DNA of 23,343 nt from a virus, in the UHGV virus genome UHGV-0099467; one strand, written 5' to 3'. The notes under the pieces were generated by a model, which worked only from the letters and a program-made list of their open reading frames with translations, had not been told where the DNA came from and did not search any database. Positions within the stretch are counted from its first letter, which is position 1, and each line of letters opens with the position of its first letter. A program made the translations under genes and the position numbers. Below are positions 1-18,370 of the stretch, one piece after another.

Positions 1-323
1 TCACTATTACCAAAAGTTAAGTCAGTTAGTGAATACTTATAAGATTTATCACCTTCATCTGATAACTTATTGAGCTGTAAACACCAGAAGAAACCTTCCA
101 AGTCAGCAGGAGTAGTTCCGACATGAGTAGGAACGTTATGAACCAGTCCCCCTAAATATTCATCTAAGTTTTTATTAGCTCTAATCTCTATGTACATGCC
201 ATAACCAATTACATCGGTATAAGCTGTGATTTGAGCTTTGAAAGGCATTGTCTTACCGCCAGCAATCTTGAAACTGCTTTTAGTCCCATCCCATGTCCAT
301 AGGTTCATTATCGGATATCTCAT
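1..323 (-). CDS. Hypothetical late protein, partial; C-terminus lies beyond the window start. Possibly a structural or tail protein.
   Basis: ATG at 323-321 overlaps the upstream gene's stop as ATGA. The reading frame stays open to position 1 (MRYPIMNLWTWDGTKSSFKIAGGK...). It sits in the late operon directly downstream of TerL and the 101-aa ORF. Confidence 0.5.
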   Translation of the reverse strand, partial: MRYPIMNLWTWDGTKSSFKIAGGKTMPFKAQITAYTDVIGYGMYIEIRANKNLDEYLGGLVHNVPTHVGTTPADLEGFFWCLQLNKLSDEGDKSYKYSLTDLTFGNS

Positions 324-625: not shown

Positions 626-2268
626 TACAATAACTTCCCTTCTTCTGAAATAGCGATACCTTTCTCACGCATTGTGTTTAAATTTTCTTGACCGTATAGT
701 GCAAAGTCAGCTAAATTGCTTTCATATACATATACAGCATTTGTTAAAGCATCTGTTAAGTCGATTTTACCTTCTTTAGTGTCTTTCACCAAACGAATAG
801 CAGCAGTATCTTTTTGATTAGCTACTTTGGCATTAAGTAAGTGCACTTTCATTAAGTTTCCCACATAGAACATCTCTCCGCTTTGTAGTGATCGCTTAGT
901 TGATTGAATGGCACTAGACATTGTAAATGCGTTCTGTTTAACTTTCTCGACATCTGCATATAGTCCCAATTCCTCGAATTTTTCTAAGAAACGAGATGAA
1001 TAAGCGGGGTCGATAGCTAATTTGATTGTGTGCAATTCGTTTTCTTCTAATAAGTTAACCAACGTCTTAACACCCTCAATACTATCATTTCTCCCGCCTT
1101 CGTGATAATGTGTTTCCCCTAAGTGTCTATATGCATCTTCTTTTTCTTGCGGTCTAATAGCTATAGGAAGAGCATAGAAAGTCTGACCAACCATAGTTAA
1201 GAAAACAGAACCCCAAGTATCGCCAGTAATAGAGAAGTCAGATCCGAGGACACCATATAATCCCTTGAAGTCGAAGTTCATGAGTTGTGCTGCATCTACC
1301 TCTTGTGGTGAGAAGTATTTATTTACTCCGTTAGCATTCAAGTTAAAGCGTTTAGTAAGTGCAACAGCCATCTTACTTGGGTCAGCTTTAGCATCATCTA
1401 AGTCCTTTTGTATATCTTCTCGTTTAACTGCTACACCGATTGCTGGGTTTGCTTTTATCCACTTATCAGGTTGATGTACCTCTTCTATATCATCTAGCTC
1501 ATAAATGAATGACCATCTAGAAAAATCATCGTTATCTAAATAAGTTTCAAAAATTTTCATCTCATTGTCATAAGCTCCACCACGAATTAAGTTATTTGTA
1601 GTAGTAACAAGCAACAAGCCTTCATTCTTTGCCAAACCTTGTCGCAATGTGCCAAGTGGACTTTTTGCCATAGCCCCTAGCTCATCAACGACAACTAATT
1701 GTTCTCGTCCACCATCAAGTTTCTTTTCGTCAGCACCGCGGATAACAACGCTAGACCCACGTGTAGGAAGTTTAGACTTCATAGGGATAGCTACATTATC
1801 TTTGTTTATTTGGATAGCTTGTTTCGCTGCTACACCGCTTGTAAGAGATAACTGTAAGTGAGTAAACATTTCGGCTTCAGCAACTGCTTTAGATACCGCC
1901 ATAAACTTCATAGCCTGATTAGGACGCCCGCCGAGCAGTAAAGTTAACTCAGCTGCCATAGTACCAAAACCAGACTTGTAGTTAGAACGACCTACACCAG
2001 CGAATATTTCACGAATAGGGAAATCATAGCAAAACACAAGAGACAACGGCATCTTCATCCAGTCAAGTAATGGTGCATAATCTCCGTTAGGTAGTGGAAT
2101 TTGATTGGAACAATATTTCTCTATCTTCTTCCACTTTTCTAAGTTAAATGTTTTACCGAGTGGCGACTTATCAAACCTTTTTAGTTTAGCTAGTGTGCGT
2201 TTATTTTTAGCACTCAATGGAATGCTTTCGAACACTGCTATATTTGGATTGTTGTACTTCATTACCAC
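625..2268 (-). CDS. terL: Terminase large subunit (ATPase plus nuclease).
   Basis: 547 aa. It has an N-terminal ATPase region with a Walker-B-like LVVVDELGAM segment. The C-terminal region is RNaseH-like nuclease, with motifs such as GSDFSITGDTWGS and LAIDPAYSS. It lies immediately downstream of an HNH gene, as in cos-type phages. Confidence 0.85.
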   Translation of the reverse strand: MVMKYNNPNIAVFESIPLSAKNKRTLAKLKRFDKSPLGKTFNLEKWKKIEKYCSNQIPLPNGDYAPLLDWMKMPLSLVFCYDFPIREIFAGVGRSNYKSGFGTMAAELTLLLGGRPNQAMKFMAVSKAVAEAEMFTHLQLSLTSGVAAKQAIQINKDNVAIPMKSKLPTRGSSVVIRGADEKKLDGGREQLVVVDELGAMAKSPLGTLRQGLAKNEGLLLVTTTNNLIRGGAYDNEMKIFETYLDNDDFSRWSFIYELDDIEEVHQPDKWIKANPAIGVAVKREDIQKDLDDAKADPSKMAVALTKRFNLNANGVNKYFSPQEVDAAQLMNFDFKGLYGVLGSDFSITGDTWGSVFLTMVGQTFYALPIAIRPQEKEDAYRHLGETHYHEGGRNDSIEGVKTLVNLLEENELHTIKLAIDPAYSSRFLEKFEELGLYADVEKVKQNAFTMSSAIQSTKRSLQSGEMFYVGNLMKVHLLNAKVANQKDTAAIRLVKDTKEGKIDLTDALTNAVYVYESNLADFALYGQENLNTMREKGIAISEEGKLL

Positions 2269-2649: not shown

Positions 2650-3390
2650 TTAATTCTTCTCTTTTGGATTAGGGTATATAGCTCTAAATTCTGTATCCCA
2701 CATCTCAGTGTAAGGGAATTTGAGTGGATTGTGACCATCTTGACCCAAGTAAAACTTAAGTTCTCTATCAGTTTTAATCCAACGAGCATTAAAGCCGTCA
2801 CAAATGTAATGAGTTTTTTTGTTCAAGTTTTTGATAACGTACATATCTAAATTAACCTCTTTCTTTGGTTGTGGTTTTTCTGGTTTTGGTTGTTCTGTAT
2901 TTGGTTTATTCGCTTGTTTGGGTCGCACGATACAGCTAAAGCCGTTATATACTGACCATGAGTTTTTACCAGGCAATAATTTTACATAGCGTTGACCGTA
3001 ATAGTTTTGTTCTATTGTTGATACGTTATTATTAGCTACTGAGTATACAACACCTACGTGCCCTGTGGAAAGTCCCGGACGTGCTGAGATGAAGAAGATG
3101 TCACCAGGTTTCAATTGTGAGAAACTAGGATCATCAATCTTTTCGAACCCCATAGCAGCCCAGTCAGTTTGGTAAGCTACGTTCCATGCAGTAGCACAGT
3201 CTGAACCAGGAACCCATTGAGCAGTAATATCAGGTTTACCGTAAGCCATTTGGTATTTGTTATTAGTCAGGATAGAAAGCCAGTATGAAGCTAACTCTCC
3301 GCATTCGCCCCCATAGCCGTATCCAACGTGATAACCATAACCAATTACTTTACCGACCGTGGCTGCTTTAAATTGTTCTATATCCATCAT
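2650..3390 (-). CDS. Endolysin: N-terminal CHAP amidase/peptidase domain, Pro/Lys-rich linker and a C-terminal cell-wall-binding domain.
   Basis: 246 aa. The candidate catalytic Cys lies in GECGELASYW and the candidate His in STGHVGVVYSV, the CHAP signature. The linker is PKQANKPNTEQPKPEKPQPKKE. The start overlaps the holin stop as ATGA. Confidence 0.8.
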   Translation of the reverse strand: MMDIEQFKAATVGKVIGYGYHVGYGYGGECGELASYWLSILTNNKYQMAYGKPDITAQWVPGSDCATAWNVAYQTDWAAMGFEKIDDPSFSQLKPGDIFFISARPGLSTGHVGVVYSVANNNVSTIEQNYYGQRYVKLLPGKNSWSVYNGFSCIVRPKQANKPNTEQPKPEKPQPKKEVNLDMYVIKNLNKKTHYICDGFNARWIKTDRELKFYLGQDGHNPLKFPYTEMWDTEFRAIYPNPKEKN

Positions 3391-3713
3391 TTATTTTCCT
3401 TTCCCATTTTATCTTTGATGAATTTTACGAGATCTTTAAACCATGGATTAATTTGCTCAATAAGTTGGAATAGCCGAGCAATAAAGAATGCCAAAGCTGC
3501 ATTTAAAATCCAAGTCAGTTCTTTATCGTATGAACCAAACATGCCAAACCAGTAAAGCAGTTCAAGAATCCAGAATACTGCAATTGTGCTAAAGTCAATT
3601 ATTAGACGTCTATTAAGAGGTGGTGACATGTGTTCTCCATCTTTAACCCAAGTCATGTATAGAATGAGTAGAATCAAGACGGTTATTGCGATAAGTTGCG
3701 ATATTGTATTCAT
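3387..3713 (-). CDS. Holin, class I-like, with three predicted transmembrane segments.
   Basis: 108 aa with three hydrophobic stretches (ISQLIAITVLILLILYMTWV, IIDFSTIAVFWILELLYWFGMFG, LTWILNAALAFFIARLF) and a charged C-terminus. It lies immediately upstream of, and overlapping, the endolysin gene. Confidence 0.6.
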   Translation of the reverse strand: MNTISQLIAITVLILLILYMTWVKDGEHMSPPLNRRLIIDFSTIAVFWILELLYWFGMFGSYDKELTWILNAALAFFIARLFQLIEQINPWFKDLVKFIKDKMGKENK

Positions 3714-3727
3714 TTGTTGACTCTTTT

Positions 3728-6118
3728 CTAATTAAATCTAAGTGGATAGCCATTTTTACGCATAAGCCCTTTAAACTCATTCATAACGGCTTGTGGATTT
3801 TGTGCGCCATCAATTGTAACATTGAAGTCACCGTAAGTTGTTGCACCAGTAGTTTTGCTTGCCATTGTAGCGCCACGGAAAGAACCCATAGCACTATTTA
3901 AAGCATCCATAACACCAGAAGCCTTAGTAAAGTATTGAATGTCAGCTAAGCCTGCGAAGGGGTCAGGTTCATCTTCAATATCTGAACTTACATTGTAATC
4001 AACACTAACTTCTTGTTGTTCGTCAGCACTCTTAAAGATAGCGTTCCAAGCATCACCGATAGCTTTAGCAATACCCCTAATCGTGTCAAGGAAACCGGAT
4101 GCAATATTGACAAAGTTTTCTATACCTCTAAGCAAGATACCTAAAGCAGTTTCGAGAACTTTGTTATTAGCTACCCATTGTCCGATGGCTGTTATGATAT
4201 TGAATATAACGCCTATCACATTACCGATTACGTGAGCTATTTTGCTGAGAACTGGAACTAACATCTCCCAAATTCTTTTTAATCCGTCCACGATGTCAGA
4301 CAATCTCTTGCTAGCTTTGCTATTCTTGTCAGTTAGTCCAGCAGCTTCCATGAAGCCATTTACAAGAGCTTTGACGACATTAACTACACCTTCAATGATA
4401 GATCCGAGGAACTGAATAACTGAAGTTAACAAGCCACTCTTATCAATCCAAGAAAGTAATTGCACAGCACCTGAGATAAGCTGACCAACAAGGGTTCCAA
4501 GAAATTGAATGATAGGCTGAAGAGCAGCAGATAAAGTTCCAAGAACACCTTGCAACAAAGCAAAATCTTCGTTTACTTTTTCGGTTGCTCCTCCTGTTTC
4601 CCCAAGCCATCCAGCGCCTTCCATCAAAGCATTAACAAAAACATTGATTAAGCTTGTTATCTGTGTCAGAACGCCCATAAGTAAGTCCCACGCACCTTTT
4701 AGCAAGTCAGAGAATACCTGAACTTGTGCCATGTTAGGAATTAAGTTTCCTAGTGCAGTGAATAGATCGACTCCCATTATCCTAGCTATGTCACTTGCGG
4801 AAAAACTAAGTCCCTCAAAACCTTCCTGTAATTGAGCTACAAAGGGGCTAACAGCTTGCCATGCCCCCCCTAAGAATGCAGCAGCAGCTTCTCCTATTTG
4901 TGTCGTAAAATCAGACATATTGTTAGACATATCACTGAGCGTGAAACCTAGAGAACCAAATTCTTTTTTCATGCTTTCTATGAATGACATGTCAAGAGAT
5001 TTCATTGAGTTCTCGAATGCATCACCGAATGTTTGTACGTCTTGACCAGCACCTTTGAAGTCAGCACCTAAGCTCTCAATTGCTTTGCGGTATAAATCAG
5101 CACTTACTTCACCATTGTTAACTTTTTCTTTGAAGTTATCCATAGTGATACCGGCATCATTATGCGCTGCTATCCATTTCTTGATAGGACCTGCAGCACC
5201 CGAGTCTATCAACTGGTTGTAATCCTGTGCCATAAGCTTACCAGCAGAGAATATTTGAGATGATACTAGACCAAAGTTCTCTATTTTATCCTTAGACATA
5301 CCGAAAGCAGTACCTATATCAAGAATGTTAGTAGACATCTTAAATGCTTCTTTACCACTCAAGTTAAGAGAAGATGATAGATTTTTAGCTATATCAGTTA
5401 ATGAACCCATATCAGCTAAACCGGCAGAACCAAGTTTTTTAATCTCTCCTTGGAACTCATTTGCACCTTTAGCGCCGTCAGACAATGAGTTAGTCATAGC
5501 ACGATTACCACGAGTTATTTCATCGTAAGTACCCATAGCAGACTTACCAAGTAAACCCAAACCAGCAGCCGCTGTGCCGGATATTTTAGCGAGCGTTCCT
5601 ATGCCAAATTGTGCTGCTTTAGCTATCCCGTTGAAACCGGTTTTAATAACTGTAGCAGAACCACTAGCAACCGCGCTTAATCCTTTAAATGAAGCACTGA
5701 GAGCTTTAACAGGTTTAGAGTTCATGGCAGCATCTTTAGCAGCTTTTAATCTAGCAAACCCTGTAGCGCCACCACCAGCACTTTTATTCATAGCATCCAT
5801 CTCTCTACGCAATGCAGCAGCTTGTGTTTTAGCGTTACGTAAATCAGCTTCAGTTTTGTTAATGCCTTTAATGTTACCTTTAGCTTCCATAGCTTCAAGG
5901 TCGGCGGTTAACTTTTTAACTTTTTCGTCAGCTAAACTAATAGCTTGTGCCATGTCTTGCATAGCTTTTTTCTTGTCCGACTTCTTGCCAGACTTTTCAA
6001 ACTCTTTGTTAAACTCTCTAGCGGACCTAGTGAGTGAGTTCATCTGTTGATTGATACCTCTGATACCCGAACTTAAAGCACGGTTATTTAACTCGGTGTC
6101 AATAACATATTTTGCCAT
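3728..6118 (-). CDS. Tail tape measure protein.
   Basis: 796 aa, rich in Ala/Gly/Leu. It has an N-terminal coiled-coil and hydrophobic central segments. It sits directly after the gpG/gpGT chaperone pair and the major tail protein. A strong RBS (AGGAGG) precedes the ATG at 6118. Confidence 0.8.
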   Translation of the reverse strand: MAKYVIDTELNNRALSSGIRGINQQMNSLTRSAREFNKEFEKSGKKSDKKKAMQDMAQAISLADEKVKKLTADLEAMEAKGNIKGINKTEADLRNAKTQAAALRREMDAMNKSAGGGATGFARLKAAKDAAMNSKPVKALSASFKGLSAVASGSATVIKTGFNGIAKAAQFGIGTLAKISGTAAAGLGLLGKSAMGTYDEITRGNRAMTNSLSDGAKGANEFQGEIKKLGSAGLADMGSLTDIAKNLSSSLNLSGKEAFKMSTNILDIGTAFGMSKDKIENFGLVSSQIFSAGKLMAQDYNQLIDSGAAGPIKKWIAAHNDAGITMDNFKEKVNNGEVSADLYRKAIESLGADFKGAGQDVQTFGDAFENSMKSLDMSFIESMKKEFGSLGFTLSDMSNNMSDFTTQIGEAAAAFLGGAWQAVSPFVAQLQEGFEGLSFSASDIARIMGVDLFTALGNLIPNMAQVQVFSDLLKGAWDLLMGVLTQITSLINVFVNALMEGAGWLGETGGATEKVNEDFALLQGVLGTLSAALQPIIQFLGTLVGQLISGAVQLLSWIDKSGLLTSVIQFLGSIIEGVVNVVKALVNGFMEAAGLTDKNSKASKRLSDIVDGLKRIWEMLVPVLSKIAHVIGNVIGVIFNIITAIGQWVANNKVLETALGILLRGIENFVNIASGFLDTIRGIAKAIGDAWNAIFKSADEQQEVSVDYNVSSDIEDEPDPFAGLADIQYFTKASGVMDALNSAMGSFRGATMASKTTGATTYGDFNVTIDGAQNPQAVMNEFKGLMRKNGYPLRFN

Positions 6119-7966: not shown

Positions 7967-9544
7967 TTATTCGCTAGCCGCAGCCCCTGCTTTGACAGTT
8001 ACAACTTTAGCCATACGACGCGCTGCAATAGAACCACCAACAAGTACTTCTGTCAAGAATTGATCGTTGTTATATTTAATGTCAAAGTCTTGGAAATTAT
8101 CGAAACCTGAAGCCATCGAAAGGTTGTAACGCTTGCTTGCGAGTGATACGATAACCCCATCATTAAAGAGTTTTGTATCAGCTGCTTTATTTTTACCAAT
8201 TTTAACATTATCAACGATAACGATATCTTCAACACCAAGACCAGCTGCAATTTGTTCTACAGAAGATGTGGCAGGGAAAATCAATTGATTATTTTTATCA
8301 CGCGCAAATTTAAGTTCGGCAAATGTATCAGGTGACATTGCGAGAACAACACCAAATGAACGAACAATACCTTTGAGCGCTTCTTTAACACCACCTACAT
8401 AGTCATCATTACCAACTTCAACCTTTTCTACCCATTCATCAGTAGTGACACCGCGAATGGCTTCAGAAGCTGTTCCAGCAATAACTTTTTGTTCAATACC
8501 AAGAGCAAGTTGTAAAGGCAAGCGATTCATAACGTAGTCGAGCAGAGCGTTTTGATTCATAGCTTTATTCATTGCAATAAGTTTACGAGGAACTTCGATA
8601 AATGAATAGAAGAACTCAGGGTTGATTGAGCGCAACTCAGGAGTGAGAGTGCCTGTTTTTTCTTGACCCATTGTATGATATGAACCAGTTGAAGCTGCTG
8701 AATCCCAACCGACTTGAAGGTCAGTCAATGGTGTTACATAAAGGTGACGTAGCAAACCACCAGGGCGTTCGAACGCATCCATGAAGCGAGATAATACACC
8801 TTGTGGAATAAGTGATTGAGGGTTAGTGATACCTTTTTCACGTTGAACCATTTCTGATTTTTCTACCCAACGTTGTTTGAATGGTTTAGCTGCTTCTACG
8901 TTGAACAATTCTTGTGCAAAGTCAAGAATAGCTCCAGCAGATTTTTCGTAAGCTACAGTGTCTTTGATTTTGATCTCGCCTGTTTTTTCTTTTTTCAAAG
9001 TTTCGACAATTGACTCAATTGATTTTGAGAATGCCGCTTGCTCTTCTTTTTTAATCGCCACTTCATCTTCAGCTAGTTTCAGTTTGCGCTCTTCAAGTTC
9101 TAATTCTTTTTCTTTAAGTTCTGATGCAGTTGCTACCATATCTTGTTCCTCTTCTTTTTCTATAGTTTCTGATTTTGTGAATGTTACTTTTGCTAATTCA
9201 TTAGCTGGATTGCGTACTAGGCTACCCTCAGTAATAACAATGTTGTGATGTTCTCGACCGTGAATATCAGATGTAGCTACGCCGTATCCAACTGACAAAC
9301 CTTCTCGACCTGAACTCTTAGCTTGACGAGCCAAATCTGAATTGTCATAGACAGCGGTGATTTCTACACCATCATCAACAACACTCCAAATTAGTTCACC
9401 AATCTTATGCGCTTTATTATGTTCTAGGTACAAAGGAGCTTTACCAAAGTCACCCTTAACACTCTTGATAATATCACCATGCTTATCTACATTGTCAAAC
9501 TGAACGAGTCGACCACGCAATCCTCCATTACTCGCTATTCCCAT
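7967..9544 (-). CDS. Prohead protease (S78/HK97-like), scaffold-like coiled-coil and HK97-fold major capsid protein, fused in one polypeptide.
   Basis: 525 aa. The N-terminal ~130 aa carry a prohead protease signature (FDNVDKHGDII...GDF, His in EHNKAHKIG, Ser in GLSVGYG). Residues ~135-200 form a charged coiled-coil (EKEEEQD...ELKEKELELEERKLKLAEDE), acting like a delta domain or scaffold. The C-terminal ~320 aa have capsid-like composition. No separate protease or scaffold gene is present. Confidence 0.7.
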   Translation of the reverse strand: MGIASNGGLRGRLVQFDNVDKHGDIIKSVKGDFGKAPLYLEHNKAHKIGELIWSVVDDGVEITAVYDNSDLARQAKSSGREGLSVGYGVATSDIHGREHHNIVITEGSLVRNPANELAKVTFTKSETIEKEEEQDMVATASELKEKELELEERKLKLAEDEVAIKKEEQAAFSKSIESIVETLKKEKTGEIKIKDTVAYEKSAGAILDFAQELFNVEAAKPFKQRWVEKSEMVQREKGITNPQSLIPQGVLSRFMDAFERPGGLLRHLYVTPLTDLQVGWDSAASTGSYHTMGQEKTGTLTPELRSINPEFFYSFIEVPRKLIAMNKAMNQNALLDYVMNRLPLQLALGIEQKVIAGTASEAIRGVTTDEWVEKVEVGNDDYVGGVKEALKGIVRSFGVVLAMSPDTFAELKFARDKNNQLIFPATSSVEQIAAGLGVEDIVIVDNVKIGKNKAADTKLFNDGVIVSLASKRYNLSMASGFDNFQDFDIKYNNDQFLTEVLVGGSIAARRMAKVVTVKAGAAASE

Positions 9545-10454
9545 CTTCCGGTTTTACCTCTTCTTCTTTTGGTTCTTGTTTAGGTTGATACTCAGCAGCA
9601 ATGGCTTGCATTTTCTCCTCCTTGGCAATCTCAAGTTCAGTACTAAATCTCTCATTTTCACGTGTGACTTTATTATACTGATCAAGATACTTATAACCAG
9701 CAGTTGAAATAAATGACAGTGTTGTAGCAAAGTCAAAGTTCCAATCTAAGCCTAAAGCATCCAAGTAAGTGCCAGTGATTTGATTAATGAAAGTCATAGT
9801 CTGATTATCGTTAGCCATTCCGAGAACGAACTCAGGAGGAATTCCGGATTGTGCAAGCATAGAAGTGAGTAATTGCTTAGGAGCTTCCATGTTAGCGCGT
9901 GAATAGTCAGGTTGTAATTCCTTAACATCTTCAGTGTTCTTAAACCATAATACTTTATCGCCTGCTTCGACTGAACTGTTAATTTGTTCATTACGTTGTT
10001 TCTGCCAAGGTAAAGCCACTTTAAGATTAAGATCTTGGTTAGTCTTAGCAATAAACTTAACCGAACCGTCTAAGTCAAATTTTCGTCCCATAGCATCAAA
10101 AGCTGCATCTATCAAAGCCAAGTTGCCAGCAACTTGTTCATATGGTCGTACAACTAATTTATAATCTCCACGCAATGCGGTAACTAAATTATAACCGTCC
10201 ATGTACGTTTTAATTGTAGGGATTTGCTCTACTACGCCGAACTCTTGATCATTAGCAATTCGATAAACTTTATTATCCTGAAGCACAAGCTCTTGAACAG
10301 CATCTAATCGATTAATCAACCTAATCACATCCAACTCTCTGCTTTTATCATATTCGACATATGACAGGGAACGGATGATAGCCTTAGTAACGATATCTCG
10401 ACCAACTGTACCAGTCCGACCAGACATATTAAAAAGGCTTGAAATATCGCCCAT
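9528..10454 (-). CDS. Putative portal protein (small, 308 aa).
   Basis: Assigned on position, immediately upstream of the protease-capsid gene. It has an acidic C-terminal tail. At 308 aa it is short for a portal, so the call rests on synteny only. Confidence 0.4.
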   Translation of the reverse strand: MGDISSLFNMSGRTGTVGRDIVTKAIIRSLSYVEYDKSRELDVIRLINRLDAVQELVLQDNKVYRIANDQEFGVVEQIPTIKTYMDGYNLVTALRGDYKLVVRPYEQVAGNLALIDAAFDAMGRKFDLDGSVKFIAKTNQDLNLKVALPWQKQRNEQINSSVEAGDKVLWFKNTEDVKELQPDYSRANMEAPKQLLTSMLAQSGIPPEFVLGMANDNQTMTFINQITGTYLDALGLDWNFDFATTLSFISTAGYKYLDQYNKVTRENERFSTELEIAKEEKMQAIAAEYQPKQEPKEEEVKPEDGNSE

Positions 10455-10514
10455 ATCTTTATTTCCTTTCTAGCAAACCTAAGCTGCATATTCACATTAT
10501 AGGGAGTGTCCCAA

Positions 10515-10596
10515 TTCTCGCAAGTGGATTCGAACCACTACTTTATTATCGGCACTAATGCTAAAACTAACCTGCCCCTAGTTAACCAGTACGAGA
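10515..10596 (-). tRNA. tRNA-like element. The 3' half is canonical (anticodon arm, 4-nt variable loop, T-arm and acceptor stem), but the 5' D-region is aberrant. It may be a tRNA-Gly(GCC)-like gene or a pseudo-tRNA.
   Basis: On the minus strand a 7-bp acceptor stem forms between TCTCGTA and TGCGAGA, with a discriminator A. The T-arm is AGTGG-TTCGAAT-CCACT, carrying the canonical GGTTCGAATCC motif. A candidate anticodon arm is cATTA-GTGCCGA-TAATa, with U33 and anticodon GCC. The segment between the acceptor stem and the anticodon arm is 29 nt instead of about 19, so no standard D-arm forms. The total length is 82 nt. Confidence 0.35.
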
Positions 10597-10645
10597 ACAA
10601 AAATAAAGGAGACGACATTTTAACGACTTATCGAGGTCGAGTTAT

Positions 10646-10828
10646 TTACATCAACTCTAACAATTTAATCATGAGATAAGCTATCAACCATGAGTACCAA
10701 AGGTTAAATAAAATTTTGCTATATCCAATTTTATTTACATATTCTAAACTAAAAGATGCAAACAAACTCAACAACCAATTAGCAGAATTAAGGATTAATA
10801 CAACCCAAACTACAACATTTAAAATCAT
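10646..10828 (-). CDS. Small hydrophobic membrane protein (60 aa, 2-3 TM).
   Basis: Its ATG overlaps the stop of the preceding 35-aa ORF as ATGA. An AAAGG sits about 9 nt upstream. The sequence is highly hydrophobic (MILNVVVWVVLILNSANWLLSLFASF...). Confidence 0.4.
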   Translation of the reverse strand: MILNVVVWVVLILNSANWLLSLFASFSLEYVNKIGYSKILFNLWYSWLIAYLMIKLLELM

Positions 10829-10932
10829 TTCTTTTTACCTTTCAATATATCAGTAAACACTGCATAGAATCCATATACCATGAAGTAAGCAGTAATAGCA
10901 ATGATTGACACACTAACAATATCACTAATCAT
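10825..10932 (-). CDS. Tiny single-TM peptide (35 aa), translationally coupled to the RuvC-like gene.
   Basis: Its ATG overlaps the RuvC stop as ATGA. Sequence: MISDIVSVSIIAITAYFMVYGFYAVFTDILKGKKK, a hydrophobic core with a lysine C-terminus. It is absent from the ORF track because it is under 60 aa. Confidence 0.35.
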   Translation of the reverse strand: MISDIVSVSIIAITAYFMVYGFYAVFTDILKGKKK

Positions 10933-11384
10933 TTTTCTAAACTTTCCACATATTTCAGTTGGCAGTAAGCGTCCGCTTCATCATCGCCTAATTCTAAACC
11001 TAAGTCATGGAGTAGTATTGCCTTGCTCTGCTCTTTTCGTTCAGATCGCTTTCCACTAATCAGATGATAACTAGCCCAAGAACTATTAGGAATAAAAGTG
11101 AAGCCGTCACTAACTTGTTGTAACATACCCAATAACATGCCATTACAGTTAGCTAAAGTTATAGCTGTTTTTTTGTTCCGTACATTAATAGGTTGTTCAA
11201 TAACTATGTGATAATTTTGTAAACTATCTTCGATAATCATTTCTTTTATAGTTACAGCTATTTGTGCTGTGCGCTCCCATGCTGAACCCTTACCACCTTT
11301 AATAACTCCAACAATATATTTACCATTCTGTTTATAAGCGTAACCTGTAGCGGTTGTGCTAAAATCAATACTTAAATAATTCAT
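10929..11384 (-). CDS. RuvC-like Holliday junction resolvase.
   Basis: 151 aa. The N-terminus YLSIDFSTTATGYAY matches the RuvC ILGIDPG..TGYAV motif with its catalytic Asp. IVIEQP supplies the second acidic residue. The C-terminal DDEADAY matches the RuvC D..D motif. Confidence 0.85.
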   Translation of the reverse strand: MNYLSIDFSTTATGYAYKQNGKYIVGVIKGGKGSAWERTAQIAVTIKEMIIEDSLQNYHIVIEQPINVRNKKTAITLANCNGMLLGMLQQVSDGFTFIPNSSWASYHLISGKRSERKEQSKAILLHDLGLELGDDEADAYCQLKYVESLEK

Positions 11385-11586: not shown

Positions 11587-11648
11587 ATTATAACATATAA
11601 AAATGTATGGTTTTTATCTCATTATACGACAAAAGCGAAGCGTGCTAA
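11587..11648 (-). promoter_or_regulatory. Candidate leftward (late/middle operon) promoters.
   Basis: On the minus strand an extended -10 TGtTATAAT spans 11595-11587. A second element has -35 TTAGCA (11648-11643), a 16-nt spacer and -10 TATAAT (11626-11621). Both lie upstream of the first leftward ORF. Confidence 0.4.
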
Positions 11649-11721
11649 GAAGGCGACTAGTTTCTAACTAAAGTGTTAGCTGCCTTAGCAGCGTGCAATA
11701 AAAATAATTTTGGGTTATCTC

Positions 11722-12534: not shown

Positions 12535-12738
12535 ATGAAAGAAATTATTTTATATCTAACTGCTGGAGGTGTCACATTAGGTTTATCTTTGACATCTATA
12601 TTTGCATCAATTATGATTTTTAGAGAAGCCTATGACGAAAAAGATTGGGGTGATGCCGTTTTGGGTATGATTATGTTATCGTGTGTAGCAATGCCAGCTT
12701 TTGGATTGTTTGCTAGTTTGTTTTTTATTGGAGGTTAA
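12535..12738 (+). CDS. Small membrane protein (67 aa, 2 TM).
   Basis: RBS AAAGGAG. There are two hydrophobic helices separated by REAYDEKDWGD. Confidence 0.55.
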   Translation: MKEIILYLTAGGVTLGLSLTSIFASIMIFREAYDEKDWGDAVLGMIMLSCVAMPAFGLFASLFFIGG

Positions 12739-12739
12739 C

Positions 12740-12937
12740 ATGAAAGCTACACACTATATAGTATATGACGAGAAAGAGAACTTCGTAGACATGGGGACAT
12801 CTGAAGAGTTACAAGAACGCTTCAATATGACTAAGTTACAAATTAGACAAAAGGCAACTGACACAAAGCGTAGAGTTCCAAAAAGCGGAGTTCGTAGAGG
12901 ATTATTATTTTATTCAGTCGGGAAAATGGAGGTGTGA
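12740..12937 (+). CDS. Hypothetical early protein (65 aa).
   Basis: RBS GGAGG immediately upstream of the ATG at 12740. The track ORF 12701.. begins inside the previous gene, so the internal start is preferred. Confidence 0.5.
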   Translation: MKATHYIVYDEKENFVDMGTSEELQERFNMTKLQIRQKATDTKRRVPKSGVRRGLLFYSVGKMEV

Positions 12938-14243: not shown

Positions 14244-14460
14244 ATTCAAGAAGAAAATAAAAGTTAAACCATATATGCCAGATGCTATGATGCCTAATGT
14301 ATTATGGGCAAAGCATCATAAGTTAGGTCACAAGGAGTATGACTTATACGGCAAGATGTGGGAAGTGGGAGAAGATGTTAATTTTGATAAATTTTGGTTT
14401 AGATTAATAAAGGATAAAGAATCAGAATTAGTAGTGAAGGGATTTAGAAAAAATGATTAA
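14236..14460 (+). CDS. Hypothetical early protein (74 aa).
   Basis: ORF in the track. It overlaps the ATPase stop. RBS AAGGTG. Confidence 0.55.
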   Translation: MIEFKKKIKVKPYMPDAMMPNVLWAKHHKLGHKEYDLYGKMWEVGEDVNFDKFWFRLIKDKESELVVKGFRKND

Positions 14461-14734
14461 ACGATATTACATAGAAGAGACTGACGGAAAAGAAACTAAG
14501 CGTACATTGACAACATTTAATGATTTAGATGACATGCGTAACTATAGCGATATTGAAATTCAAGAAATGTATTATGAATCTACAGCTGAGTTAGTTAGTA
14601 AGGCGCACAAGGTTGAGTTATTATTTGAAGAAATAAAGGGTCGTTACCAACTAGGGGAAAGTGATTTTAATTTAAGTATTCTAACTGAAGCATATGTAAA
14701 TAAAAGCATAGCTTTAGATAAAATTAATTTGTAA
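14453..14734 (+). CDS. Hypothetical early protein (93 aa).
   Basis: ORF in the track, overlapping the upstream gene. Confidence 0.55.
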   Translation: MIKRYYIEETDGKETKRTLTTFNDLDDMRNYSDIEIQEMYYESTAELVSKAHKVELLFEEIKGRYQLGESDFNLSILTEAYVNKSIALDKINL

Positions 14735-17604: not shown

Positions 17605-17912
17605 CAGAACAAACTTTTGACAATGTAGTATGGGTAACGGGACGACTGACAGAGCCTACTAATTACCCTAAAAAAAGCGTAGTAATTGATGTAAATGTGT
17701 TCGAGAGCGACATGAACAACTTATACAGCAAGCGAGTAATGAACTTATATCTTGTAAATGATGAAGATTTTAGCACTGTAGTAGATGTTTTGAAGCAATC
17801 ATACGGTGAAAACTGGGACTTATACGGTAAAAAAGTTGACTTCCTAGGTTTCCAAGGTGTATACCAAACTTACAGCATCACGATTAACCAACAAGGAAAT
17901 ATAGACTTTTGA
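17601..17912 (+). CDS. Hypothetical protein (103 aa).
   Basis: RBS AGGA. It overlaps the upstream gene. Confidence 0.55.
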   Translation: MTEQTFDNVVWVTGRLTEPTNYPKKSVVIDVNVFESDMNNLYSKRVMNLYLVNDEDFSTVVDVLKQSYGENWDLYGKKVDFLGFQGVYQTYSITINQQGNIDF

Positions 17913-18370
17913 GAAAATTTATAAAATATAAAGAAAATTATATGGTTAGTGACCATGGAGAAGTGTGGAAGATAACCAAAAACGGTCTTAAACGAACACT
18001 TGGGACGAAAGCTGGAGCTGACTATACTATTATTAGTATAAACGGCAAAAGAGAATATTTACACAGAGTTATAATTGGTGCATTTAATGGTGGCAGTGAG
18101 TTAGAAGTAGACCACTTAGATATGAATAAAAACAACAATATTTTAAGTAATTTAGAGTATGTGACACACGAAGAGAACATGAAAAGAGCGTGGAAGAGCG
18201 GAAAAGTAAGCCAGGCGTCGAAAATGAAAAAAGTTAAACATAACAATGTTACTTATGACAGTATTACTGAAATGTGTAAAGTTTTGGGTTTAACGATAGG
18301 TGCAGCCAGTGATGCATTAAAAAAAGGAAATAAAATAAAAGGATATTACGCAGAAAGAGTCGAGGTATAA
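17909..18370 (+). CDS. Free-standing HNH homing endonuclease (NUMOD4, HNH_3 and a C-terminal helix-turn-helix DNA-binding module).
   Basis: It carries YMVSDHGEVWKI...GY..IISINGKREYLHRVIIGAF...EVDHLDMNKNNNILSNLEYVTHEEN (HNH_3) and then ITEMCKVLGLTIGAASDALKKG (HTH). The start is either TTG at 17909 or ATG at 17942. Confidence 0.8.
   Translation: MRKFIKYKENYMVSDHGEVWKITKNGLKRTLGTKAGADYTIISINGKREYLHRVIIGAFNGGSELEVDHLDMNKNNNILSNLEYVTHEENMKRAWKSGKVSQASKMKKVKHNNVTYDSITEMCKVLGLTIGAASDALKKGNKIKGYYAERVEV

Follow-up and report, generated by a model that had tools for sequence, protein, structure and literature searches.

TLE-1, a conserved tRNA-like element without a conserved anticodon arm in phages of Lactococcus garvieae and Lactococcus petauri

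The 23,343-nt phage sequence UHGV-0099467 (hereafter the window) carries on its minus strand, at positions 10515–10596, an 82-nt transfer RNA (tRNA)-like element that we have named TLE-1. The element goes far beyond chance, being conserved in related and in unrelated phages with compensatory base changes. What is new here is a strongly conserved mini-tRNA that has no anticodon arm, that carries an exchangeable module in its place and that is common to the phage lineages of one host. We consider it probable that TLE-1 is a phage gene for a small, anticodon-less noncoding RNA that mimics the top half of a tRNA, and that would be processed like a tRNA and may serve as a decoy. The window represents a phage of about 23 kb, whose closest relative, Lactococcus phage ACM616_1, has L. 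petauri as its host. Lactococcus garvieae/petauri is a fish pathogen, and its phages are under development for phage therapy in aquaculture.

Anatomy, distribution and conservation of TLE-1

Read along the minus strand, the window copy begins with the 5′ strand of an acceptor stem, UCUCGUA (10590–10596), whose partner is UGCGAGA (10516–10522); the seven pairs include a single wobble, U6-G67. The acceptor stem is directly abutted by a D-like element, CUG-GUUAACUAGGGG-CAG (10572–10589), with a 3-bp stem and a 12-nt loop that holds a run of G, so that nucleotides 8–9 of a tRNA have no equivalents; the CUG/CAG stem was predicted independently by RNAalifold. A variable module of what we call arm type A, GUUAGUUUUAGCAUUAGUGCCGAUAAUAAAGU (10540–10571), replaces the anticodon arm and includes a 5–6-nt equivalent of the variable loop (UAAAGU). 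It is followed by a T arm, AGUGG-UUCGAAU-CCACU (10523–10539), which matches a tRNA T arm perfectly, and by an A at the discriminator position (10515); CCA is not encoded. With up to three mismatches allowed, the window still contains the T-arm 17-mer just once, as against 0.06 occurrences expected by chance, and the minimum-free-energy fold of the window copy retains both the acceptor stem and the T arm. An initial annotation, made by a model from the sequence alone, had described the acceptor stem, T arm and discriminator A on this strand just as we find them. Its hairpin with a 4-bp stem, a 7-nt loop, U33 and an apparent GCC anticodon (ATTA-GTGCCGA-TAAT, within the variable module) can likewise be drawn in the window copy, and its impression of an oversized D region was borne out: about 30 nt separate the acceptor stem from this hairpin, and no standard D arm fits there.

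A sensitive blastn search with positions 10400–10720 against 50,697 phage records gave matches only in L. garvieae/petauri phages, with copies in ACM616_1, PLgW-1, PLgY-16, PLgY-30 and PLG-II; in the last four, which are 936-like Uwajimaviruses, the match was limited to the element itself. Exact-pattern scans of viral and metagenome collections added the copies L011/L055, L015, L016/L041, L034, L035 and L068, the other 50 metagenome matches being ordinary tRNA genes of several specificities (e.g. anticodons GAC, TGT and GAT) that have only the T arm and five more bases in common with the element. A covariance model, R1, was built from 11 distinct copies (alignment A1). It recovers all 11 at 77–97 bits (97.4 bits, E 4e-23, for the window copy) and in addition picks up a divergent copy in phage LG75P1 (63 bits), with an identical sequence in LG75P3. 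Together the copies of TLE-1 amount to at least 12 distinct sequences, which fall into three lineages, namely the c2-like type of the window, LG75P1/P3 and the 936-like Uwajimaviruses. One 2.1-kb metagenome contig (L016, CYGL01004518.1) has copies at 95–153 and at 1529–1587, and its segments match the window in opposite orientations; this is probably a chimeric, inverted assembly, and the pair was not counted as a duplication.

Outside this host group the element was not found. In one genome per species from 185,579 bacterial and archaeal species, the 3′ 20-mer, GGTTCGAATCCACTTGCGAG, had no match and the 5′ 20-mer had only three chance matches, inside coding sequences of Paenibacillus and Bacteroidota. 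An alignment-based search for homologues of the resolvase encoded upstream of TLE-1 returned 80 loci from IMG/VR, about 76 of which were c2-like L. lactis phage contigs; only two of the 80, both Uwajimavirus contigs, carry TLE-1. A locus search with a single resolvase protein as query found nothing. TLE-1 was absent from roughly 500 resolvase-carrying L. lactis phage records. In L. lactis phage M6162 the endolysin gene comes directly after the resolvase gene, with no TLE-1; the corresponding site of bIL170 is occupied by near-canonical tRNAs. Within the collections searched, TLE-1 is phage-specific and limited to L. garvieae/petauri phages. It occurs there in three lineages with little other DNA in common, and it tracks the host and not the phage lineage. 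No public phage record that we examined annotates it, and a full-text literature search yielded no description of it.

In every copy except that of LG75P1, the core differs from that of the window at no more than two of its 50 positions (48–50 identical). In the same comparisons the upstream 120 nt are ~50% identical, which is to say unalignable, and the adjacent structural gene is 67–69% identical to that of the window in L041 and L068. The conserved parts are the acceptor stem, the 18-nt CUG-GUUAACNAGGGG-CAG, a 5-nt UAAGU before the T stem (UAAAGU or UAAGGU in type A copies) and the T arm. Seventeen of the 18 positions of the D-like element are invariant in the 12 distinct sequences, with variation (U/A/G) confined to loop position 17, and the T arm is invariant except in LG75P1, where it has one compensatory pair (AAUGG/CCAUU). 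The acceptor stem of LG75P1 reads GCCUGUA/CGCAGGC as compared with UCUCGUA/UGCGAGA; pairs 1, 3 and 4 are changed on both sides and are still paired, and the D-like element is unchanged but for one loop position that is variable elsewhere too. In the model alignment 98.3% of cells are paired and four pairs show changes on both sides, a result reached by none of 500 shuffles, and pairing was 33–44% in a control in which the partners were slid by 1–3 columns. RNAalifold, with no structure supplied, returned the same three helices. Isolated mismatches are found in PLG-II (pair 4), PLgY-16 (pair 1) and LG75P1 (pair 7), and the discriminator is A, G or U among the homologues.

The fold belongs to the minus-strand transcript, which is also the strand of the surrounding genes: read from the other strand, the invariant U6-G67 wobble would become an A-C mismatch. 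Judged from these alignments, the core is under strong purifying selection, and the constancy of the D-like element despite the covaried stems argues for a sequence-specific contact beyond simple folding. The initial annotation had named failure of the acceptor and T-arm pairings to be conserved in related phages as an outcome that would tell against it; the pairings are conserved and covary, which supports the option it had offered of a tRNA-derived structure.

The exchangeable arm and the relation to canonical tRNAs

Between the D-like element and UAAGU, the sequence is wholly different from copy to copy. Type B copies (PLgW-1, PLgY-16 and L016/L041) have only the 4-nt linker GUUA (a 9-nt insert), type A copies (window, L011 and L015) have 26–27 nt (a 32-nt insert), and copies of types C and D (PLG-II, L068, ACM616_1, L035, L034 and LG75P1) have hairpins of 40–60 nt, the basal stems of which differ yet stay complementary. 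The insert lengths are 9, 32, 43, 50, 53, 58 and 64 nt. The arm types are shuffled across lineages; the type A arm of the window is identical at 29 of 32 positions to that of the Uwajimavirus-like L011, in flanks that cannot be aligned. In all, the anticodon arm is absent or replaced in eight of the 12 distinct homologues, and even within type A the would-be anticodon is GCC in the window and GCT in L011 and L015. Because the proposed arm is not conserved, the GCC ‘anticodon’ is meaningless, and we conclude from the comparison of copies that the RNA cannot decode, its anticodon arm being both dispensable and exchangeable.

Two other readings of this region found no support. The overlapping open reading frames (ORFs; 57 aa on the plus strand and 26 aa on the minus strand) cannot be conserved, the differences in insert length not being multiples of three, and a guide or antisense role of the variable arm finds its best complementarity within the window at 11–14 nt (E>0.1), which is at chance level.

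One arm recurs as a separate unit. This structure, ‘hairpin H’, has the core GUUAUAGUGAYRAGUGUNUCGCGUAU between variable complementary arms, and its inner stem covaries (GUGA/UCGC versus AUGG/CCGU). In three phages it is the arm inserted in TLE-1 (L035 ~4660–4686, minus strand; L034 ~1153–1178 and L071 ~3051–3076, plus strand). In Uwajimaviruses it stands free (L003 ~947–972 and L005 ~1386–1411, both on the minus strand), followed by UUUU and lying 4–5 nt upstream of the gene for a tRNA-Trp or a tRNA with anticodon UCA. Hairpin H may be a terminator or else a structured module that is mobile or reusable.

Programs that recognize tRNAs pass over TLE-1. ARAGORN found no tRNA in the window and its search for transfer-messenger RNA (tmRNA) was likewise negative; Rfam gave no match in the window at the gathering score, nor in 10300–10800 at E<=10. 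In the relatives, no TLE-1 variant matched the Rfam tRNA, tmRNA, YrlA or any other family, even at E<=10. The element does not reach the RF00005 threshold of 29 bits, while true tRNAs in the same loci score 52–60 bits. Three relatives are called as tRNAs by ARAGORN, with contradictory identities (Ala-agc, Asn-gtt). The lack of a covariance-model hit, which the initial annotation had set against its own proposal, is thus real for Rfam, yet it shows only that the element is no canonical tRNA, and the custom model R1 does match. Standard tRNA finders miss this class entirely.

The features of a tRNA are divided accordingly between those kept and those lost. The 7-bp acceptor stem and the 5-bp T stem with its T-loop consensus are retained by covariation, and the stem is not extended past 7 bp in a conserved manner. 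There is no conserved anticodon stem–loop with a fixed anticodon, and in place of a standard D arm (a stem of 3–4 bp with a loop of 7–11 nt, after nucleotides 8–9) is the 3-bp stem with its 12-nt loop. As read from sequence, all copies have what substrates of RNase P and RNase Z require, namely a 12-bp acceptor/T helix and elbow flanked by single-stranded leader and trailer sequences, with no CCA in the gene (for RNase Z).

Genomic setting and the tRNA-like island

The architecture of the window is c2-like (Ceduovirus); its resolvase is 52% identical to that of Ceduovirus and about 41% identical to the resolvases of 936-like Skunavirus. Upstream of TLE-1 lies a minus-strand operon (10646–11384) that comprises a Holliday-junction resolvase (10929–11384; PHROG 827, E 1e-40), a 35-aa ORF (10825–10932) and a 60-aa ORF (10646–10828), the last two hydrophobic by their translations. 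The first gene after TLE-1 encodes a 308-aa virion structural protein (9528–10454, minus strand; PHROG 10159), and further downstream on this strand are a protease/capsid fusion and then more structural genes. Of the neighbours named in the initial annotation, the two small membrane ORFs upstream are confirmed; the downstream gene, which it took for a putative portal gene, is that of the 308-aa virion structural protein, a possible portal.

The position of TLE-1 is constant: it comes first after the resolvase operon, ahead of the next promoter or tRNA-like module. In LG75P1 it begins 7 nt after the resolvase stop codon, and because it starts so close to that codon it must be co-transcribed with the resolvase gene in this phage. 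Promoters and terminators were called here as consensus matches only. On these terms a sigma-70-like promoter, TTGCGA-16 nt-TATAAT (10496–10523, minus strand), overlaps the window copy, its -35 hexamer being formed by the T-stem end together with the 3′ acceptor strand. The same layout is seen in PLgW-1 and LG75P1 (TTCGCA-17-TGnTATAAT); directly downstream of the L016, L035 and L041 copies no promoter was evident. On the other side of TLE-1, an imperfect long hairpin with a U-tract, CUCCUUUAUUUUU (10597–10660, minus strand; -11.1 kcal/mol, z -1.96), is a possible weak terminator of the upstream operon. Its motif is conserved in the c2-like group, and in the window the U-tract ends 2 nt upstream of TLE-1.

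Several short motifs accompany this region. Directly after the last tRNA-like unit, whichever unit that is, phages of the c2-like group have UUGGGACRCUCCCUAUAAU (window 10498–10514, minus strand; also L034, L016, L068 and L001), in which a small palindrome, GGGA-N3-UCCC, stands beside a perfect -10 box and may be a regulator site for transcription of the structural genes. A second motif, CUCCUUUAUUU(UU), recurs just before TLE-1 in the c2-like group (window ~10601–10613, minus strand), just after another tRNA-like unit, TLE-2, in Uwajimaviruses (L003 ~985–1000, minus strand) and just after the first tRNA-like gene of bIL170 (L073 3331–3345, plus strand); it resembles a terminator U-tract and also the 3′ end of 16S rRNA. 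Upstream of the resolvase gene is a promoter-like TTAGCA-16-TATAAT at a conserved site (11648–11621, minus strand), and the noncoding block at 11613–11696 is 85–88% identical to the divergent-promoter region of Uwajimaviruses (L003 2403–2490, L005 2900–2983 and L011 3161–3245) between flanks that cannot be aligned.

One to three tRNA-like units make up the mosaic island that follows the resolvase operon. Beside TLE-1 it can hold TLE-2 and TLE-3, which ARAGORN and Rfam also miss, at L003 1001–1069 (minus strand), L034 1324–1392 (plus strand), L005 1439–1507 (minus strand) and L016 ~225–322 (plus strand). TLE-2 has the form AUCUAUA...AGCGG-UUCAAGU-CCGCU-UGUAGAU, with a 5-bp stem and a 7-nt loop without U33, and TLE-3 the form AUUUGCU...GGGGG-UUCGAGU-CCUCU-GGCAGAU. 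True tRNA genes also occur in the island. Their anticodon is UCA in PLgW-1 and PLgY-16 (L003 862–934 and L004 779–851, both on the minus strand), which ARAGORN labels ‘SeC’, and CCA (Trp) in PLG-II, L011 and L015 (L005 1301–1373 and L015 966–1038, both on the minus strand); the form with UCA could be a variant tRNA-Trp that reads UGA or acts as an opal suppressor. In the classic 936-type phage bIL170 (L073, NC_001909), the stretch after the middle operon holds a tRNA match with a shortened anticodon arm (3258–3329, 35.9 bits), a tRNA-Pro(UGG) (3384–3455, 52.5 bits) and a third T-arm-like sequence (~3540–3590); the bIL170 annotation table has no tRNA feature for this stretch. A further conserved module combines an extended -10 promoter (TGGTATAAT) with a leader of ~85 nt (CCUUUGUAUGACGAUACAUAAAGACAAG...GAGCUAUGGUUAUACC) and is found at L003 1085–1169 (minus strand) and L071 3123–3215 (plus strand) and also in L034, L035, L005 and L011. 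It follows TLE-1 in Uwajimaviruses, L034 and LG75P1 and is 91–92% identical across lineages, and it is probably a shared regulatory leader RNA.

Elsewhere in the window, five ORFs (2650–3390 and 3387–3713 on the minus strand; 12701–12937, 14453–14734 and 17909–18370 on the plus strand) have homologues in the 936-like PLgW-1, some of them in LG75P1, and none in the c2-like M6162. Their matches in PLgW-1 are the annotated endolysin and holin, two small hypothetical ORFs and an annotated transglycosylase, which on sequence grounds indicates gene exchange among phages with a common host.

Possible roles and comparison with known systems

The preferred reading, that of an anticodon-less mini-tRNA that is processed and acts as a decoy, would run as follows. 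TLE-1 would be transcribed as the tail of the resolvase operon or, in some phages, from a short upstream promoter. In the transcript, the 7-bp acceptor stem would stack on the 5-bp T stem with its UUCGAAU loop, and the G-rich D-like loop could close the elbow. RNase P would then cut the 5′ end and RNase Z would cut after the discriminator, whereupon CCA would be added, giving a discrete RNA of about 60–115 nt; the cut would also sever the upstream mRNA from downstream transcription. What bacterial RNase P, RNase Z and CCA-adding enzyme recognize in a substrate is the elbow and the 12-bp helix of acceptor and T stems, not the anticodon arm. Because the parts kept in TLE-1 are the ones these enzymes read, we infer excision by RNase P and RNase Z. 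A processing role, one of the suggestions of the initial annotation, is in this way part of the explanation that we prefer. As to what the mature RNA does, we suggest tentatively, as the most likely role, that it may act in trans as a harmless imitation of a tRNA, occupying a host factor that reads the elbow and the acceptor end. Candidates for such a factor are a defence toxin of the AbiEii/MenT type that modifies acceptor ends, or SmpB. Lactococci carry tRNA-directed defences including AbiE, PARIS and Hesat (PMC13064643); as targets of a decoy, these are a matter of plausibility only.

A second function that would fit lies in cis. TLE-1 would then be punctuation, or an insulator, whose fold recruits RNase P and RNase Z to cut the resolvase transcript away from read-through into the structural genes; these would be expressed solely from their own promoter, and the excised RNA would be functionless. 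We regard this as rather unlikely, and it nevertheless accounts for a good deal: nothing else intervenes between the resolvase operon and TLE-1, and whichever promoter or tRNA-like module comes next lies beyond it; the next promoter overlaps its 3′ strand, and the parts retained are those that the processing enzymes need, with the anticodon arm left free to vary. However, punctuation needs a shape and not a sequence, and near-invariance extends to the 12-nt D-like loop, T loop and equivalent of the variable loop across lineages whose flanks are unalignable. The island of Uwajimaviruses, L034, L035 and L041, moreover, already has candidates for the purpose in its other tRNA-like units or a true tRNA, and punctuation does not predict restriction to the phages of one host group. 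We favour the decoy over punctuation because conservation of the D-like loop, T loop and UAAGU extends to their sequence and is not one of shape alone, even where the stems have covaried, and because TLE-1 tracks the host rather than the phage lineage.

The remaining explanations fare less well. That TLE-1 is a decaying tRNA pseudogene, the relic of a phage tRNA cluster, would fit the failure of Rfam and ARAGORN to recognize it, the other aberrant units (TLE-2 and TLE-3) and true tRNAs in the islands of relatives, and the tRNAs of bIL170 at the equivalent place; decay should be even, however, whereas the core is identical at 48–50 of 50 positions between flanks at chance identity and neighbouring genes at about 68%, and the changes in the stems are compensatory, so that we hold a pseudogene to be improbable. 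Still less probable is a site that acts as DNA. An attP site derived from a fragment of a host tRNA gene classically looks like this, with a canonical 3′ half joined to an aberrant 5′ half, and the T-arm inverted repeat and 3′ acceptor strand overlap the -35 box of the promoter, as might an operator or UP element. Yet the scan of 185,579 species genomes found no host tRNA gene, or any other sequence, identical to the 3′ segment, and just the three chance coding matches for the 5′ 20-mer. No integrase is listed in the annotations of the relatives ACM616_1, PLgW-1 and LG75P1; the window itself was not searched for one, only 10 of its ORFs having been compared with PHROGs. These results run counter to the integration role that the initial annotation had entertained. 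The 5′ half, furthermore, is as conserved as the 3′ half at a distance that varies from 9 to 64 nt, unlike a fixed protein-binding site; the pairing includes a conserved G-U wobble that works on one strand only; and three copies (L016, L035 and L041) lack a promoter directly downstream. Least probable of all, and for practical purposes ruled out, is a working decoding tRNA, either a tRNA-Gly(GCC) or a tRNA whose D region carries an insertion, both of which the initial annotation had allowed for. A 4-bp stem, a 7-nt loop, U33 and GCC can be drawn, and ARAGORN does call three relatives as tRNAs, but with identities that disagree; the arm is absent from PLgW-1, PLgY-16, L016 and L041 and replaced by unrelated hairpins in six others, GCC becomes GCT in L011 and L015, no variant matches RF00005 at E<=10, and what fills the D region is conserved, though non-standard, and no random insertion.

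A number of points weigh against a processed decoy RNA. Every step past the fold (expression, processing and binding) is one that we infer. The first nucleotide is U in most TLE-1 copies, whereas bacterial RNase P generally prefers G+1, and the A/G/U variation at the discriminator argues against a specific aminoacylation identity. The folding energy of the window copy is not unusually stable relative to shuffled sequences (z -1.38). There are only 12 distinct sequences, and one divergent lineage (LG75P1/P3) supplies all of the covariation, so that the four compensatory pairs represent few independent events; near-identity across lineages could also reflect in part recent horizontal transfer instead of long-term selection. 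Transcription into the window copy may be weak, given the terminator-like hairpin and U-tract just upstream. Finally, comparison of the window ORFs with PLgW-1, LG75P1, M6162 and ACM616_1 found no phage protein partner that co-occurs with TLE-1: the window proteins specific to L. garvieae phages are the endolysin, the holin and a few small early ORFs, none of which is tRNA-related or strictly co-distributed with the element.

The decoy could be cast more narrowly, and more doubtfully, as a counter-defence RNA, a stable, CCA-tailed top-half tRNA that would soak up an effector acting on the acceptor end or elbow (a nucleotidyltransferase of the AbiEii/MenT type or another tRNA-directed toxin) or would sequester SmpB. 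Having no anticodon, such a decoy would leave translation undisturbed, and the position of the anticodon arm would be a landing pad for modules swapped between phages, for example hairpin H. If this were true, TLE-1 would be an RNA-based anti-defence decoy of a new class, passed between unrelated phages of the same host. Phage tRNAs are known to rescue translation from host defences that cut tRNAs. A non-decoding half conserved nearly base for base across host-sharing lineages would be a different use of the tRNA shape, whether to divert a factor that reads the elbow or acceptor end or to build into the transcript a signal for cleavage between transcription units.

Compared with canonical tRNA (RF00005), TLE-1 has the same 7-bp acceptor stem, 5-bp T stem, UUCGAAU loop, 5-nt variable-loop equivalent, discriminator and Gs in the D-like loop, and its region holds true tRNA genes in related phages; it differs in having no conserved anticodon arm, no nucleotides 8–9, no consistent anticodon, and a D arm of unusual dimensions. 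In the 3′ end of MALAT1, which gives mascRNA, and in mitochondrial tRNA punctuation, a tRNA-shaped module within a longer transcript is a signal for RNase P and RNase Z. These systems are eukaryotic or organellar and keep a stem like that of the anticodon arm, so the analogy is one of mechanism only. The stable RNAs species 1 and 2 of phage T4 (rnaC/rnaD) lie in the T4 tRNA cluster and are matured by the tRNA-processing machinery, and their function is not known. They resemble TLE-1 in being phage-encoded, partly tRNA-like and located with tRNA genes, and differ from it in architecture, with no sequence relationship; no exchangeable arm is known in them.

The closest likeness in topology to tmRNA (RF00023) is that of types C and D, in which an acceptor stem, a D-loop analogue, a long helix at the place of the anticodon stem (compare helix 2 of tmRNA) and a T arm follow one another. 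CUGG-N7-GGG comes after the acceptor stem both in TLE-1 and, as we verified in its sequence, in E. coli ssrA; this match is weak, could be chance and is not counted as evidence, and we take it as a lead and not as membership. In contrast to tmRNA, TLE-1 is only 59–114 nt long and has no pseudoknots or tag reading frame, its inserts of 9–64 nt containing no conserved ORF, and the 3-70 pair is not G3-U70, being U-A in 11 sequences and C-G in one. YrlA, the bacterial Y-RNA-like RNA, is a non-decoding RNA with a tRNA-mimicking module, and some of its members are phage-encoded (PMC4201824). Both YrlA and TLE-1 form an elbow from T and D loops and have another helix instead of the anticodon stem. 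The ends of YrlA form a Ro-binding helix, with rsr adjacent, and its acceptor-like stem is closed by a loop, whereas the ends of TLE-1 pair as the acceptor stem itself, with no Ro/Rsr gene nearby and no rsr-like gene in the annotations of ACM616_1, PLgW-1 and LG75P1. The kind of RNA that TLE-1 represents is already known, then, from partly tRNA-like phage RNAs, tRNA-shaped processing signals and tRNA mimics such as the T4 stable RNAs, YrlA, tmRNA and mascRNA.

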